Positions 939 through 7,024 of a stretch of 64,000 nucleotides of DNA are shown here, piece by piece. Numbering within the stretch: position 1 is the first letter of the stretch; every line of letters begins with the position of its first letter. The DNA is taken from assembly GCA_963815195.1 (NCBI GenBank), contig CAWFGE010000012.1, forward strand, positions 1-64,000. Reading direction: 5' to 3'. The notes under the pieces are model-generated. The model was not told the DNA's origin, did not search any database, and worked only from the letters and a program-made list of their open reading frames with translations. The stretch is from an uncultured Planctomycetaceae bacterium (GTDB lineage Bacteria > Planctomycetota > Planctomycetia > Planctomycetales > Planctomycetaceae). The position numbers and the translations under genes were made by a program.

Positions 939-1281
939 TGTCACCGGGCACTTTAAAACCGGCCAGGGGTGGGCACTTCAAAACCGACAGGGGTGTGAAT
1001 GATTAGTGCCGCAACTTTGTCGCACAGTTTTTCTGTCGGTGGCAGTTTTGCTATCGGATGCTTGACCTCAATGGCTCAAGCCTCAGGTGGGGTTTTCTGG
1101 TCCTTTGAGCGTTTGGCTTGCTTATTTTCCGGGCAGTTTTTCTCCGCGGATTTCTCGCCCTGGACCCGGTGGGCACTTTGGCCGGTTTTGGGGCTTTGAT
1201 TCCCCGTCTGCGTTTGGCCGGTTTTGGCGTCCCGTTTGGGCTTCTTTTCTTGGTTGGTTTTGGTGTCCTGGGGAGTCGTTT

Positions 1282-1333
1282 TGGAGATCGGCGTGCAATT
1301 GGGACCCACTTCGGCGCGGAAATGGGACCCACC
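1282..1333. mobile_element. Terminal repeat of a second, different IS21-family element
   Basis: TG-start followed by two 23-bp-period units TCGGCG..GGGACCCAC (1288, 1311), ~65 bp downstream of the istB stop; unrelated to the 939/6340 repeats. Confidence 0.65.
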
Positions 1334-1398
1334 TGGGGTGGGGAATGATGTGGAATGGGGCAGGTTGGGAAGGAAAGACGGGCGTCGTCGGAGCCGAC

Positions 1399-1839
1399 TT
1401 AGCGGGTTTTCGGCTTCTTGTTTTCGGACGCTTTTTTGTCTTTCATCGACTGTTTGAAGCGGTAGCTTTCGCCGTTCATCTCGAAGATGTGGCAATGGTG
1501 CGTGATGCGGTCCAGTAATGCCGCGGTCATGCGTTCGCCTTGGAAGATTTGCCCCCAATCGCTAAAGGCCAGGTTGCTCGTGATCAGCAGGCTCTTGCGT
1601 TCGTAGCGATCCGCGAAGACCTGGAACAACAACTCTGCTCCCGACCGGTTGAACGACAAGTAACCCAGTTCATCCACGATCAACAAATCGAGCTTGTCGA
1701 GTTGGTTCAACAACCGCTCCAAGGTGTAATGTTTCTGAGCTTCTTCCAGGCGATTCACCAAAGCCGCGGCGGTGAAGAACTTGGTCTTATAACCCGCTCG
1801 GCACGCGGCCAGGCCCAATCCAATGCTGATATGAGTTTT
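1399..1839 (-). pseudogene. istB: istB 3' half (IS21 AAA+ helper ATPase), from the Walker A K-T-H onward
   Basis: KTHISIGLGLAACRAG...LLIVDELGY (Walker B)...LITSNL...AALLDRITHHC...GESYR. Confidence 0.9.
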
Positions 1840-1842
1840 GAC

Positions 1843-3918
1843 TCAGCCATTGTTGTGCCCCCTTGGGATAGTGATTTGCTCGGTTTCGTGATTTTTGAGT
1901 TTTAGCATGGCGTCTTTAACCTCCTCAGTTTTGGGAAACAGATAGCACCGATAAATTGGATCGACAGAAACCACGATCTGTCTTTGCTCAATTTTATGAT
2001 ACATCCAGGATATGTTGCGCCCGATTTCCTGAGCCATTTCCGCGGCGGTCCAGGCATGGGGCAGGTTCTTTGCACGCGGGCTTTTGATCCGGTAGCGATG
2101 TCTTAACTTGTTCACGATTTGCGAGGTGAATTGTTCGCCACGACAGGGATGATGGCCTTCGCGATTGAGATCCGCCGCGATCATTTCACTCGACCGGCCT
2201 TCGCTGGTTTCTTGCCGGATGCGTTCCACGATGTGCTCTTCCAAGTCCGTGTGTTTCATTGAAAAACGCCGTAGGAGAGCCGACGTTTCGGTCACCGAAC
2301 CGCCGGCCCAGACCATGCGAATTTGCACCAGCCCATCCGATTGCCGGTGAAGATTGACTCCCGTAATCATCGTCCGCAACAACGACTTCTTCGCCTCCCA
2401 AGACAACTCGGGCCAGAGTTCGGGAAGCTGCCGCCCGACATCCGCGAAGGCGTCTCGCAAGGACTTTGGTACGCGGATCGGTTGGGGAATTTCTCGGCGG
2501 GCATCCGCCAGGTTTTCTTCGGCTTGCTTTTGCGCCAACAAAGCCGATTCCCATTTCTCTTCCAGACTGGCCGCAATCAAACGGTTCTTGGGATCGACAC
2601 AGTCGTATTGTTGCTCGGCCCGATGGGCGGCGTATTGCAGTCGCCCGACGTCTTGCTCCAAATGCCGAACCACGTCCGCATGCGTGCGAGCCCTTTCGGC
2701 GGAGAGTTTCTCCAACACATCGATCTCGGCAGGCCGCAGCACTTCAAAGAAAGCTTCCGTCACCGCCTCGTCGATCTTGTTGCCGCCCAAGTACTGGCAG
2801 GATCGTTGGGCGTAATGCCGATAGCCAGAATTGCATGAGTATTGAAAGCGGTTCTCCTTGTAATTCACTCCCATCGTTCGACCGCATTTTCCGCAGCGCA
2901 ATAAGCCCGTTAACAACGCGCAGCCGTTGCGGATGGCTTGCTTGGCGGCGAGTCGTTGTTGGATGCGGAGGTTGTTTTGAGCGATTCGGCGTTGGTTGTC
3001 TTCGTACTGCTCCCAACTGATATAGGCCGGGTAGATGCCGGGAATTAAGACCGACCATTCCGCTTGGGGCCGGCGCGTGCGACCCGTGGCAGGACGACCG
3101 GGAATTCGTAGCGTGGGATCGACTTGCCGACGCCCATGAGCAAACGCGCCTGCATAAGCCGGGTTATGCAGGATCGAGCCCAACGAAGCGGCCGTGGCTT
3201 CTCTCCAAAACACTTCGCCCGCATAAAGGCCCGAAACTTGGTGCCGGGGAATCTTCAAATTTTTCTTGGCCAGGAACGTCAAGACTTTTTGAATCGTGCC
3301 CAACTCCACGAACTTGTCGAACACCAAATGCAATCGCTTTTGAATGCTCAGATCGGGATCGAGCATCACCGTCTTGTCCAGATTGCGGACCAAGCCCGTC
3401 GGCAAGTTTTGCACCAACTCGCCCCGCGCGGCCTTCGACAATCGACCCGCGTCCAATCGCAATCGGAGGCTATGGAGCTCTGCCGAAGACATCGTGCCCT
3501 TCAAGCCTAAGAGGAGCCTGTCGTTGAAATCCCGTGGATGATACAACCCATCCACATCACCGATGAGTGTGTCAAAGATCGCACACAATTCCAACAGTCG
3601 ATGCCAGTCCACATCGTTGCGGGAAAGCCGCGAAACTTCATAGCCCAGAATGATGCCGACCTTACCCAAGCCGACGTCGGCGACCATCTGTTGAAAGGCC
3701 CCGCGTCCCGCCGTTTGCGTGGCCGATTGCCCTTGATCATCCTCCAGGATGCTGACTTGTTCCGGCTTCCACCCCAACTCCAACAACCGGGTTTTCAAGG
3801 CTCGCTGGTTGTGGGCACTCTCTTGGTTTTTCTCGACCTGCTTCGTCGTGCTCTGACGAAGATATACGATCCCGCGGCGATTCAAATGGCTGGTGCTGAC
3901 TTTCATCGATCCGTTCAT
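1843..3918 (-). CDS. Large serine recombinase (resolvase, recombinase and Zn-ribbon domains), 691 aa
   Basis: YLRQST catalytic motif, EVSRLSR, LLLGLKGTMS, NPAYAG, LLTGLLRCGKCG. Confidence 0.93.
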   Translation of the reverse strand: MNGSMKVSTSHLNRRGIVYLRQSTTKQVEKNQESAHNQRALKTRLLELGWKPEQVSILEDDQGQSATQTAGRGAFQQMVADVGLGKVGIILGYEVSRLSRNDVDWHRLLELCAIFDTLIGDVDGLYHPRDFNDRLLLGLKGTMSSAELHSLRLRLDAGRLSKAARGELVQNLPTGLVRNLDKTVMLDPDLSIQKRLHLVFDKFVELGTIQKVLTFLAKKNLKIPRHQVSGLYAGEVFWREATAASLGSILHNPAYAGAFAHGRRQVDPTLRIPGRPATGRTRRPQAEWSVLIPGIYPAYISWEQYEDNQRRIAQNNLRIQQRLAAKQAIRNGCALLTGLLRCGKCGRTMGVNYKENRFQYSCNSGYRHYAQRSCQYLGGNKIDEAVTEAFFEVLRPAEIDVLEKLSAERARTHADVVRHLEQDVGRLQYAAHRAEQQYDCVDPKNRLIAASLEEKWESALLAQKQAEENLADARREIPQPIRVPKSLRDAFADVGRQLPELWPELSWEAKKSLLRTMITGVNLHRQSDGLVQIRMVWAGGSVTETSALLRRFSMKHTDLEEHIVERIRQETSEGRSSEMIAADLNREGHHPCRGEQFTSQIVNKLRHRYRIKSPRAKNLPHAWTAAEMAQEIGRNISWMYHKIEQRQIVVSVDPIYRCYLFPKTEEVKDAMLKLKNHETEQITIPRGHNNG

Positions 3919-4021
3919 GCTCCAGTTCCTCCGTTAGAATGACGACGATTTGCTGGATGATCCGCTGCTGCTCTGGAAGAGTCAGACGGTTCCACACCTG
4001 GTCCGTGGCAATGGGTGACAT
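3737..4021 (-). CDS. Small hypothetical accessory protein overlapping the LSR start
   Basis: ATG with GGAGGG/GGAAG upstream; helical N-terminus VWNRLTLPEQQRIIQQIV; position typical of small ORFs ahead of such recombinases. Confidence 0.5.
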   Translation of the reverse strand: MSPIATDQVWNRLTLPEQQRIIQQIVVILTEELEHERIDESQHQPFESPRDRISSSEHDEAGREKPRECPQPASLENPVVGVGVEAGTSQHPGG

Positions 4022-4315
4022 CGGCTTCCCTCCGAGAAAGAATATCCCGAAAGGTAGTCACCAAATCCTGGAGCGCGTCCAGGGTCAGACAGGAAGTTTT
4101 TTGGGGAGGAGCGGTGGAAAGGTTCGTGCTGCTGACGTCGATGTAGGTCATCTCGTCAGGAAAAATCTCGACTTGATAATACTGACGATAACCTGGCAGG
4201 CGGGCTAAGCCGAACAAATCAAATGTTCGGCCATAAAGCGGATGGGCCGGATCGGTGACGGTGATCTCACCGCGCGATAACTGAGTGACCAGAGGGGTCT
4301 TGTGATGGTCGGACC
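3915..4315 (-). CDS. Accessory ORF (DUF5372-like ITVTDPAHPLYGRTF motif) with no ATG upstream of the motif in the integrated state
   Basis: Frame of ORF 3915..4217 stays open upstream to the element boundary; motif recognised from memory. Confidence 0.55.
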
Positions 4316-4647
4316 TTCCCAGTTCCGGGCGGACCGAGCAGCAAAATGTCGGCGGCTTCGCGAATAAACTTCCCCGTCGCCAGGTCCATGATTCGGCGTT
4401 TGGGGAGAGTGGGGTTGAAGGAAAAATCGAGTTGGTCGAGGGTCTTCATCTCGCGGAACTGGGCCAGCTTCAATCGCCGATCGATCGCCCGTTGGCGACG
4501 GATTGCCAACTCATCGCTTAACACCAGTTCCAAGAACTCGGCATGCGACAAGCCGTTGCCGATGGCTTCTTGCAGCCTGACTTCCAAGGATTCGATCAGG
4601 CCGCTCAAGCGGAGTTGCTTCAGCATCTGCATTAAATTTCCATTCAT
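4316..4647 (-). pseudogene. istB: istB 5' half, ending in Walker A GPPGTGK
   Basis: LKQLRLSG...KTLDQLDFSFNP...ILLLGPPGTGK; ATGA overlap with the istA stop. Confidence 0.9.
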
Positions 4648-6226
4648 CGGTTTTGCTCCTTTCGAAGAGCGGCTTTGACAAACTCGGAATAACTCACCAG
4701 CGGCCGAATGACCGGGTGTTCGTCTAAAAACTCAAACTGGGCTTGCACGGGGGCGTTGCGGTCGATCAGCTTGCGAACGGTCCTCAGTCGGTAGGCTCCA
4801 TACGAGTGGGCGGTGCGGCACGCGCGTTCGATGTCCTCGCGCGAATGCTTGTCGGCCAGTTGCTTGAGGCCCATCAACACCCGCACGCCCTCAATGCCGC
4901 GTGCTCCCAGCATGGCCGCGGACCAATCCCTGGTTTCCGGGCCGATTTCGCTGACTTTCGCCAGCCACCAGGTGGCTCCGCGTTCCACGCCGGAGATTTT
5001 CCTCGCGTGCAAATGGGTGTTCTGCGTGCTGAACTTTCCCGGTTCTTGACGGGCATGCAAGGCGATCTGTTCCAGCTTGGCATTGAAGATGCGCACCAGC
5101 CGCGCATCCCAGCGCACCCAGACTTTCCTTCCCAGAAATTCCGGCGGCACGGAGTAATACGCCTTGTCCACGGAAATGTGCCCATCGCGATGCACGCTCC
5201 GCAGGGCTTCATGGAAAAACGGAAATCGTTCCAACGGCAACGGCAACGGAAACAGTGCTGACCGTTCCCGTTCGCGAAACGCCTTGCCCACTTGCTCTCT
5301 GGTCGTTCCATGAATCCGCGTATCGGCCACGGTGGATTCCCAGGCCCACAAGTGTTCGTTCTGTTCGCGCAGGCTTCGGAACGTCCGCCCTTTGAGTGCG
5401 TTTTCTTGGGCGTAGTCCACGCCGCGTTCGACCTTGCCTTTGTGTCGGGGCGTGCGAACCCGCGTGGGCAAAAACACCGTGCCGTAGTGCGCGGCGAACG
5501 ATTGAATCTTGGGGTTCAGTTCCGGGTCGAACCAATCCGCCTTGCTCACGGCGGCGCGCAAGTTATCGATGATCAGAGTCTTGGGCACACCTCCAAAATG
5601 CCAGAACGCACTCTCCAGACACCGAATGAAGTTGTCGGTGGTCTGGCGATCGATCGCTTCCGTGTAGCCTTTACGGCTGTGGCTCAGCACGACCCGCAAC
5701 ACGTGTGGCCGGCGACGACGGCCGTTCTCATCCACGACGGCCGCGGCTTGGCCAAAGTCCACTTGAGCTTCCGCGCCGGGTGCGCATTCCAATCGACGAA
5801 ACGGCAACTCCTTCGAAGACCGCAACTGCCGCACGAAGCGTTTCACGCTGTCGTAGCCATGGGGAAAATCATGGTCATTCGACAGGTCCTGGAAAATTCG
5901 CTGCGCGGAAAGTCCCTGGCCGAGCTTTTCTAAAATGACATCCCGCCAAGGCTCGCAGCGGCTCCGCGAAAGTTCCGACTCGTCCTTCTCAGAATCGTCT
6001 TCAAGGGCCTCACGAAGGTCCTCCGACCCGGCGGGCAGTTGGCCCTCGGACCCGGTGGGCACTTTGGCCTCGGACCCGGTGGGCACTTTGGCCGGTTTTG
6101 AAGCGAGATGGGCGGCCACCGTTGAACGGTGAATGCCCAATTCGCGGGCAATCTTGCGCAAAGACCAGCCTTGAGGCGCAAAGTGTGAATGGCTTGAACC
6201 GTGTCCATCGAGAGCTGATTCGACAT
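4644..6226 (-). CDS. istA: IS21 transposase IstA (DDE), apparent 1-bp frameshift near 6173
   Basis: HTH GWSLRKIARELGIHRSTV; AQVDFG, IIDNLRAAV, KGKVERGV; ATG at 6226 with GAGGA SD lies in another frame. Confidence 0.9.
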
Positions 6227-6439
6227 CGCTTGTTTTCCTCTGAGAAAACTCAAAGGAGAACAAAATGTCGAATCCCTTTCCTCTCAAAATGGCCGGTTTT
6301 GAACTGCCCACAAGTGGCCGGTTTTCACTGCCCGGTGACATTACGCCGTTTTTCGACCGGCTTATCGAACGACGGGTTCTACAGTACCAGTCTAGCCTGA
6401 TGGTGCGGGGGGCAGGGGGCTGAAAATTTCGTTTCACCG

Positions 6440-7024
6440 CTAAAACTGATAGGTGATCGCCTTGTTGTTTTCCAAGACCATCTTTTTCGCAAAGAGGGTG
6501 TCCACAATACGCTCCACCTCCTTTTGCGTAATCTTGTTCTGAAAGATCGAGAGGATGTGTTGTGCGAGGGTCTTTCGCTTCCGTGGTCGTGACTTCTTTT
6601 CCGATTTTCCAAGAATCTCAATCACGCGTTGGAAGTTTGGATCGTTCGGGGGAGGATCTCTCTTTGGTTCGAGTTCCACCATGCTGCTAATTCGCCGACA
6701 TTTCAGACCGTTTTTCTTCAGATGTCGCAGGAGAGGATCAAAGCCTTTGTCCCTGGAAAGAACAAAACATTCGAGCTGAGATTCTCGCTCGGCAATGCGG
6801 CCCAACTCACAGGCGATAAAGAAATCCAGAGCGTTCTTACCATTGGCGTCGATCCGGCTCCATTGCACGCGCGTTCCAAGTTTCTGGGCATTCGCAACCA
6901 ATTCTATGGGAATGCTTTTTTGCGATGCCCCGACAAAAATCGTGACGCGGACGTTTTTGTCCAATCGCGCAAGTTCCACGTGCTGCACGTTCTCAAAGTC
7001 GATCAGCAGTAGTCTCTGAATCAT
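6440..7024 (-). CDS. PIN/NYN-like nuclease domain protein with C-terminal winged-helix-like domain
   Basis: LLIDFENVQ, GKNALDF, SRDKGFDPL acidic PIN motifs. Confidence 0.75.
   Translation of the reverse strand: MIQRLLLIDFENVQHVELARLDKNVRVTIFVGASQKSIPIELVANAQKLGTRVQWSRIDANGKNALDFFIACELGRIAERESQLECFVLSRDKGFDPLLRHLKKNGLKCRRISSMVELEPKRDPPPNDPNFQRVIEILGKSEKKSRPRKRKTLAQHILSIFQNKITQKEVERIVDTLFAKKMVLENNKAITYQF

Follow-up and report, generated by a model that had tools for sequence, protein, structure and literature searches.

An NGRIS-4-like large serine recombinase element in the Walker A lysine codon of IS21 istB genes of an uncultured Planctomycetaceae bacterium

A stretch of 64,000 nucleotides from an uncultured Planctomycetaceae bacterium (contig CAWFGE010000012.1 of assembly GCA_963815195.1; the whole stretch is referred to as the window) contains, on its minus strand, the istB gene of an IS21-type insertion sequence (IS) split at its Walker A motif by an element of 2,478 bp. 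Three open reading frames (ORFs) make up this element, all on the minus strand: ORF1, which is DUF5372-like, the small ORF2, and a large serine recombinase of 691 amino acids. The domain set with the catalytic serine, together with the 2-nt core shared by the two ends, identifies it as a large serine recombinase integrative element. Judged from the junctions of its copies, the crossover falls on the AA with which the Walker A lysine codon begins, in a fixed orientation, and unrelated istB genes are used again and again. We are fairly confident in an account of the element as a minimal, multi-copy inhabitant of insertion sequences that belongs to the NGRIS-4 (y4bA-D) superfamily. Below, C numbers denote contigs of this genome, L numbers denote loci of relatives, and X1 is one public run.

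At the left end of the element, attL (4294..4340, minus strand) consists of the istB flank, the core AA (4317-4316), and the element arm; at the right end, attR (1815..1864, minus strand) consists of the element arm, the core AA (1839-1838), and the istB flank. In both cases, the AA makes up positions one and two of the Walker A lysine codon. The istB 5' half (4318..4647, minus strand; IstB_IS21 positions 2-106), which belongs to an element termed IS21 'A', ends in the Walker A glycines, and the 3' half (1399..1837, minus strand; IstB_IS21 112-236), which belongs to IS21 'B', runs from the third base of the lysine codon. The original prediction, made from the letters of the window, that the 5' half stops at the Walker A glycines plus AA and that the 3' half restarts after AA was therefore verified at both junctions. 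Its proposal of a crossover at a 2-nt overhang, in the style of serine integrases, was likewise borne out, as the AA core is shared, no target duplication is present at the junctions, and empty alleles have a single AA. When deletions of 2470-2485 bp were tried, removal of 2478 bp left an open frame of 256 aa in which the GxxGxGKT motif is normal. The expected restoration of the frame thus stands, but not that of the original gene: the two halves come from different IS21 elements, and excision would therefore give a hybrid.

The genome holds nine left ends and eight right ends of the element at 98-100% identity, one of the right ends being truncated by a contig end. All nine left junctions start after the AA and follow an istB 5' half that runs up to its Walker A glycine, and three unrelated types of 5' half are found there (type A in three copies, D in five, and E in one). 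All seven readable right junctions end at the AA, from where istB continues with K-[T/S] in a 3' half of type B', C', or F'. The element always lies in the same direction as istB. Intact empty alleles were found for A+C' (C23:241690) and E+F' (C9:15060), and these sites are precise, as had been anticipated. D+B' is the third natural pair, with one 33-bp repeat at both ends of the elements concerned (C7 and C8). The D-type 5' half is occupied in each of its five copies, and the assembly contains no empty istB of the D+B' kind; six istB Walker A sites in the genome are left unoccupied. No copy was found outside istB in the 8.9-Mb genome. The claim that the element targets P-loop codons of another mobile element accordingly holds for the istB Walker A lysine (16 of 16 readable junctions in the genome) but not for other P-loops; general P-loop targeting was discarded, as no copy lies at such sites despite 496 P-loop-like motifs (a crude count) in long open frames.

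Relatives were drawn from a genome scan (7 loci), a metagenome scan (best 80 of 598), and 19 matches in 401 genomes; proteins at E 1e-50 or better number 6,946. In a tree of 105 recombinases, the window sequence falls within a clade of eight (Shimodaira-Hasegawa-like approximate likelihood ratio test, 100), and all eight members sit at an istB Walker A on at least one side. For the seven other members, the left junction is readable in four, each at the istB Walker A lysine, and the right junction in seven, six of them in istB. The tabulated flanks of the seven closest relatives thus place 10 of 11 readable junctions at istB and not at random, in line with the original prediction. These relatives come from Chloroflexota and Planctomycetota records, and their istB targets are widely different. 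In the flank of L001, K-P-H stands for K-T-H, proline replacing the threonine of the motif; L007 has its left junction at an istB Walker A, and the recombinase gene there carries a 2.4-kb insertion. In the sister clade, L010 and L018 are found at Walker A. Target labels change 15 times on the tree against a mean of 41.9 for shuffled labels, the labels having been set by hand from flank motifs, with 60 of 105 rows as 'other' and with kin sharing labels. Viral contigs yielded no relative with the patterns used. An extra helix-turn-helix (HTH) gene follows the recombinase in L018 (2896-3273, inside the element, before its right end) and in L020 (3046-3423).

It is very improbable that the recombinase is only loosely specific and that the istB sites are survivors of selection, insertions in IS genes costing the host little. 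The few conserved attB letters (GG, GG, GG, AA, and CA) and the off-target junctions of some relatives (right in L007; left in L011, L012, L020, and L024) would suit such looseness, yet survival alone cannot put all 16 readable junctions on one codon, one strand, and one gene family in an IS-rich genome of this size, and other branches of the family keep other fixed codons.

The recombinase is 39% identical over 643 aa (E 5e-126) to NGR_RS29835 of pNGR234a, the last gene of a cassette of DUF5372, HTH, small ORF, and recombinase genes (pNGR234a NGR_RS29820-29835) that interrupts a transposase gene on the opposite strand at a TT core. We take this cassette of Sinorhizobium fredii NGR234 to be NGRIS-4 (y4bA-D). 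The element in the window shares with it the homologous recombinase, of y4bA type and placed last with its stop adjoining the right end, a first gene of DUF5372 type, a location inside another IS, and a right-end start codon in frame with DUF5372 across the 2-nt core. It does not fall into NGRIS-4 proper, a four-gene branch of 3.3 kb with an extra HTH gene, opposite-strand insertion, and a TT core, whose site is not istB but a K/N codon that precedes the catalytic Glu in DDE transposases by four codons; the element here has three ORFs in 2,478 bp, is co-oriented in istB, and forms a separate branch. All nine NGRIS-4 copies are reported to lie inside other IS elements (Perret et al. 1997), and that study is not known to describe codon-level targeting or a split gene.

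More distant members of the family were represented by 33 loci below 44% identity that have a DUF5372-type motif and sufficient left flank. TT was found at the predicted core in 22 of these, and for 21 of them translation of the host strand gives K or N followed four codons later by a Glu, as is typical around the final catalytic residue in DDE transposases. Wherever both ends could be placed in the distant loci (22 of 22, two of which are identical copies), the same core dinucleotide is present at both, four of them being non-TT. A family scan of 38 further right flanks, with junctions unmapped, returned 10 transposases or reverse transcriptases, 2 HTH proteins, 5 other families, and nothing in 21. 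Rhizobial plasmid homologues (Bradyrhizobium and Rhizobium; 36-37%) often abut or overlap annotated IS66 tnpB genes, and the flank of L098 likewise matches the IS66 tnpB family. By eye, L038, L046, L055, L076, L039, and L051 seem to form a branch that inserts beside W-x-x-E and P-I-E transposase motifs, presumably those of IS4-type and IS630-type transposases.

Within the element, the recombinase gene (1843..3918, minus strand; PF00239, PF07508, and PF13408) encodes the Pfam domains Resolvase, Recombinase, and Zn_ribbon_recom and keeps the catalytic patterns Y-x-R-x-S and S-R-x-x-R; Y19, R21, S23, S96, R97, R100, and four zinc cysteines show no variation across 47 sequences. In four of the seven whole copies of the genome, its frame is shortened, probably by assembly indel errors. 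ORF2 (3737..4021, minus strand) encodes a small helical protein and overlaps the recombinase downstream of its own conserved part, conservation being limited to about the first 40 residues. Its frame, start, and W/L/I/E pattern are common to L001, L002, L003, L007, L008, and L009; no match was found in Pfam. ORF2 and the recombinase each have their own start, that of ORF2 being an ATG with its own ribosome site. The element is filled by its three ORFs and has no relaxase gene, and a scan for promoters and terminators gave nothing above chance.

ORF1 (body 3915..4316, minus strand) is open from the left end of the element (4316 to 3915), and the integrated form offers it no ATG, GTG, or TTG before codon 34. 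At the right end (1848..1864, minus strand), a purine-rich ribosome-binding site (1864-1858) and an ATG (1850-1848) point outward and overlap the last codons of the recombinase; they are in frame with ORF1 only across attP, and the ATG joined to ORF1 across the core opens a frame of 137 aa. Since its body lies at one end of the element and its ribosome site and ATG lie at the other, full-length ORF1 should be obtainable only from the circle. The right-end ATG was also considered as a restart for the istB 3' half and was ruled out, being out of frame and followed by a stop after 31 codons.

An ATG is present at the equivalent position in 7 of 10 Walker A elements, and the other three have CTG there with an in-frame ATG nine codons upstream. 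In the NGRIS-4 branch, a near-perfect GGAGGT site and a start 11 nt before the core read stop-free into DUF5372 in 18 of 18 cases, and the ends assigned in this branch have independent support from matching core dinucleotides and host reading frames. A second, about 35% identical recombinase element of this genome has its right-end start in frame with a DUF5372-like ORF in a third register, and an internal ATG as well. Read from the sequences, the far-end start design holds in three registers, those of the window clade, the NGRIS-4 branch, and the second element. In the deduced attP, ATGG (1850-1847) lies opposite CCAT (4308-4305), each 7 nt from the core, and GGGG (1861-1858) lies opposite CCCC (4297-4294); the symmetric GGGG and ATGG blocks of the original prediction are thus present. 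Arm symmetry in the window is modest, with 13 of 30 positions complementary (p ~0.02 versus shuffles; p 0.04-0.08 with shorter arms), and is much stronger in relatives, where L002 and L007 have 10-11 perfect pairs beside the core.

ORF1 gave no direct match in Pfam. Profile-profile comparison with DUF5372-type ORFs gave a probability of 95.7 (E 9e-9), and the predicted structure is an SH3-type barrel with a C-terminal helix (predicted local distance difference test (pLDDT) 84). Fold searches with this model returned generic SH3/KOW barrels only (best Z 6.9, root mean square deviation 3.0, 62 aligned; none at Z 8), and there was no viral match at E 0.001. When ORF1 was modelled in complex with recombinase residues 325-691, the score was 0.68, compared with 0.00 for the best control; 116 of 157 solved complexes attained the mark, as did 2 of 215 mismatched pairs. 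Runs agreed in at least 84% of contacts, with a partner pLDDT of at least 72. On the recombinase, the predicted contacts comprise the zinc ribbon (341-346), the coiled-coil feet (393-416 and 481-498), and the second half of the second DNA-binding domain (DBD2; 512-543), so that the contact with DBD2 and the coiled-coil base looked for in a directionality factor is found in the prediction. The ORF1 side of the interface contains H25, P26, and L85, and no other residue of the protein is without variation among 44 family members. The model indicates that ORF1 probably binds the recombinase at the zinc-domain/coiled-coil hinge, which is the site of directionality factors. The factor of SPbeta has its interface at the zinc ribbon and coiled-coil base, as in the ORF1 model (PMC11722253, PMC12286644).

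In the mechanism that we favor, the recombinase would join a near-palindromic attP to a degenerate attB formed by the conserved istB Walker A codons; the element would move through an excised circle and would gain copies by excision and re-insertion. The circle alone would yield full ORF1, so that the state of the element could determine, through ORF1, in which direction recombination proceeds. The most sensible role for a factor available solely from the circle is to assist integration or the capture of targets by a self-excising recombinase; ORF1 may therefore favor integration and the capture of loose targets, with the recombinase alone performing excision in a TnpX-like manner. TnpX-type enzymes carry out excision and integration without a factor (PMC5704250). 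Between such an aid and a classical excision factor, we consider that the aid fits best, with chances that we put at roughly even. The benefit to the element would be a safe, abundant, and mobile landing site, and the knockout of istB is a by-product, not a switch that serves the host.

That ORF1 is instead a classical excision factor appears somewhat less likely. A rare first excision, through a leaky near-cognate start or supply in trans, would then make the ORF1-producing circle. Such a start could be provided by a CTG that the left-end frame has as its ninth codon, ahead of all interface residues; this CTG is not conserved in relatives, however. The predicted binding at the known factor site also suits an excision factor. 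An extension of the same idea, to which we give the same weight, is that the circle temporarily blocks its own re-insertion and triggers the excision of sister copies, with recombination between the ends of different copies shuffling the istB halves, as the shuffled flanks in this genome, L007, and L032 would allow. Against this, a non-replicating circle that blocked its own integration would be lost, and shuffles made by the recombinase would leave empty hybrids, whereas the observed hybrids are filled. L032, from an unrelated assembly, is itself a mismatched-flank copy, its left flank being IstA-like and its right flank another integrase-core family.

Several observations weigh against our preferred account of targeting and of a circle-only ORF1. 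The right junction of L007 (5172-5300) lies in a lysine codon of a tyrosine-recombinase gene, with no P-loop there, just before an H-x-L-R-H motif, and four readable left junctions of the sister clade (L011, L012, L020, and L024) are not at Walker A; the close relatives with flanks number only seven. Among the 38 further right flanks, 26 have no transposase-type or HTH match. Part of the in-frame count for the NGRIS-4 branch follows from the procedure itself, in which the two ends were assigned by fixed distances to the start codon and to the ORF1 motif. Binding of ORF1 to the recombinase is a model built on our own alignments. A directionality factor of the classical kind has to be present before excision takes place, and a gene that is whole only in the circle cannot provide one at that stage. 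Finally, neither a circle (attP) joint nor an empty-site joint was found in four public DNA runs, which were available as contigs only, so that this is not evidence of absence.

The IS21-type region that hosts the element occupies the minus strand of the window between terminal inverted repeats at 939 and 6340. The right end of IS21 'A' (939..1281, minus strand), with the inverted repeat at 939 that pairs with 6290-6340 and the last istB-A codons, matches the right ends of IS-A on C14 and C21 with 100% identity. Within those last istB-A codons lies the right terminal inverted repeat of IS21 'B' (1282..1346, minus strand); the match to C7 and C8 starts exactly at 1282, and the 33-bp end at this position also delimits both sides of the D+B' elements on these contigs. 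The window 3' half of istB is 99.7-100% identical to those on C7 and C8, which there follow another 5' half, and the own 3' half of istB-A, joined in the empty allele C23:241690, is of a different type. The window therefore combines a type A 5' half with a type B' 3' half, i.e. parts of two different IS21 elements. The istA transposase of IS21 'A' (4644..6226, minus strand; rve and Mu-transpos_C_2; ATG at 6226) contains a 1-nt frameshift near 6175, where run X1 has one extra C, and which is probably an assembly error; the left terminal inverted repeat of IS21 'A' (6290..6340, minus strand), which repeats with the 939 end, stands beyond it. The IS-A ends at 939 and 6340 have no common target duplication, whereas an intact IS-A relative on C23 has one of 6 bp, and when IS ends were paired across contigs by target duplication, none matched except those of the intact IS on C23.

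Further features were noted in and around these IS elements. Tandem repeats of 24 and 36 nt, which read like K-P-A-K-V-P-T-G-S, occur at 1157-1270 and 6017-6100 and are common to the N-terminal linker of istA and the non-coding right end of IS-A. Positions 1-870 encode the C-terminal region of a histidine kinase in two frames, split near 400-450, and a PIN7-domain gene (6440-7024) lies directly beyond the IS left end. The second recombinase element (C21:170-2800; also on C14, C16, C18, and C19) sits in istB-A, in the proline codon just past Walker B, with a CC core and an empty site at C23:241875. C6:1454-1560 is the remnant of a diverged element (80% identity), truncated upstream by another IS, whose right junction is ~7 nt deeper into the same B'-type istB.

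Mismatched istB halves are found in three of the seven whole copies (window, C15, and C16), and copy-to-copy recombination or assembly mis-joins would each account for them. In the first case, the window copy would be a rearranged one, with the left half of IS21 'A' and the right half of IS21 'B'. In the second, which we think plausible but hold as the less probable, the mismatches, that in the window included, arose by mis-joining at a 2.5-kb repeat, and one interrupted IS21 would be the real arrangement of the locus; such an explanation bears on the chimera and not on the targeting. Contigs C14, C19, C21, and C23 end at, or a few bases from, the right junction of the element, and the assembly has indel errors, as seen in the shortened recombinase frames and at 6175 in comparison with X1. 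The contigs of the four public runs contain the A, D, B', and C' junctions separately, and no piece in them spans the window arrangement. Mis-joining fits less well with the position of the IS-B right end inside the last istB-A codons, with unique sequence beyond, a layout that suits nested insertion followed by deletion between two direct copies. Nor does it fit the private variants of the copies, which form a mosaic, or similar mismatches in the unrelated assemblies of L007 and L032.

The original prediction also regarded the element as a reversible, regulated off-switch for IS21 mobility, analogous to skin in sigK, with timed excision restoring IstB. We consider this improbable. A softer variant, in which the element leaves briefly so that its host IS can produce new empty copies and then re-enters them, is also of low probability, although the occupation of every D-type copy speaks for it. 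Excision at the AA core would indeed be precise and in frame, and empty alleles are intact; moreover, every D-type 5' half is occupied, yet the IS that carries it has left ends at three places with differing flanks. Helper-embedded satellites gate phage genes in this way (PMC10111431). The halves in the window are not a pair, however, and the C' half that is the natural partner of its 5' half is broken after Walker B by the second, 35%-identical element in five of five element-side copies. The L001 flank reads K-P-H and not K-T-H, the insertions of sister branches in transposase genes lie on the opposite strand, so that the design is not bound to istB control, and the element has no regulator gene and no promoter above chance. 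Interrupted IS copies are also located at several places with different outer flanks. With halves from two IS21 elements, a matching 3' half that is doubly broken, and no sign of regulation, the reading as a skin-like switch is not supported.

The likeness to skin is that of a large serine recombinase element that interrupts a gene whose frame can be restored. Skin is a single-copy element in a host developmental gene and is excised on a developmental cue; the element here, by contrast, has nine copies in three istB types and no developmental host gene. Excision would not restore the original gene at the locus in the window and would do so in principle, at the Walker A junction, for four of the seven whole copies. 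The analogy is therefore weak, given the many copies, the selfish target, the mismatched or doubly broken genes, and the lack of a sign of regulation. Helper-embedded phage-inducible chromosomal islands use a tyrosine integrase. They are phage satellites with replication genes and experimentally shown excision (PMC10111431), whereas the present element is known from sequence.

With the integrases of SPbeta (SprA/SprB), phiC31, and Bxb1, the element shares domain order, a 2-nt crossover, and a symmetric attP, and with phage and integrative conjugative element (ICE) integrases a small partner, here predicted, at the DBD2 and coiled-coil hinge (PMC11722253, PMC12286644). Unlike those systems, it has no phage or transfer genes, is present in many copies, and has a degenerate target defined by a protein motif; its partner gene is cut by attP and encodes an SH3-type barrel. 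That serine recombinase elements reside inside genes of other mobile elements is already known from integrative mobilizable elements (IMEs) in Tn5252-type ICEs, which, like Tn4451/TnpX, disrupt conserved mobile-element genes (traG, maff2, and SNF2) with a 2-bp core (PMC5704250). Compared with these IMEs, the element here has no relaxase or cargo, has insertion sequences as hosts and a candidate cofactor, and uses sequence-diverse targets in several phyla. The open literature, together with the text and eight supplementary files of Durrant et al., contained no istB Walker A targeting and no account of a role for DUF5372 or of an attP-split gene; subscription journals and ISfinder were outside this scope.

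A broader reading, which we offer tentatively, is that a large, unnamed superfamily of minimal serine recombinase elements addresses catalytic-motif codons of other mobile elements and sets its direction by a gene that senses the state of the element: DUF5372 would be a circle-only directionality cofactor acting in reverse, by which an excision-prone recombinase becomes an integrase for degenerate targets. The addresses would, equally tentatively, be the istB Walker A lysine, the catalytic-Glu helix of DDE transposases, the proline after Walker B, and IS4-/IS66-type genes. The element in the window reveals a tier of parasites that live in insertion sequences and use protein motifs as their addresses in DNA. 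Such parasites account for many of the istB and transposase genes that are annotated as split, and they can shuffle the halves of unrelated IS genes. DUF5372 gains a testable function, and a cofactor gene assembled only across attP would, if true, be a new way of setting the direction of a recombinase. Branches that have shifted between distinct degenerate targets provide a natural series for studying and re-aiming integrase specificity.

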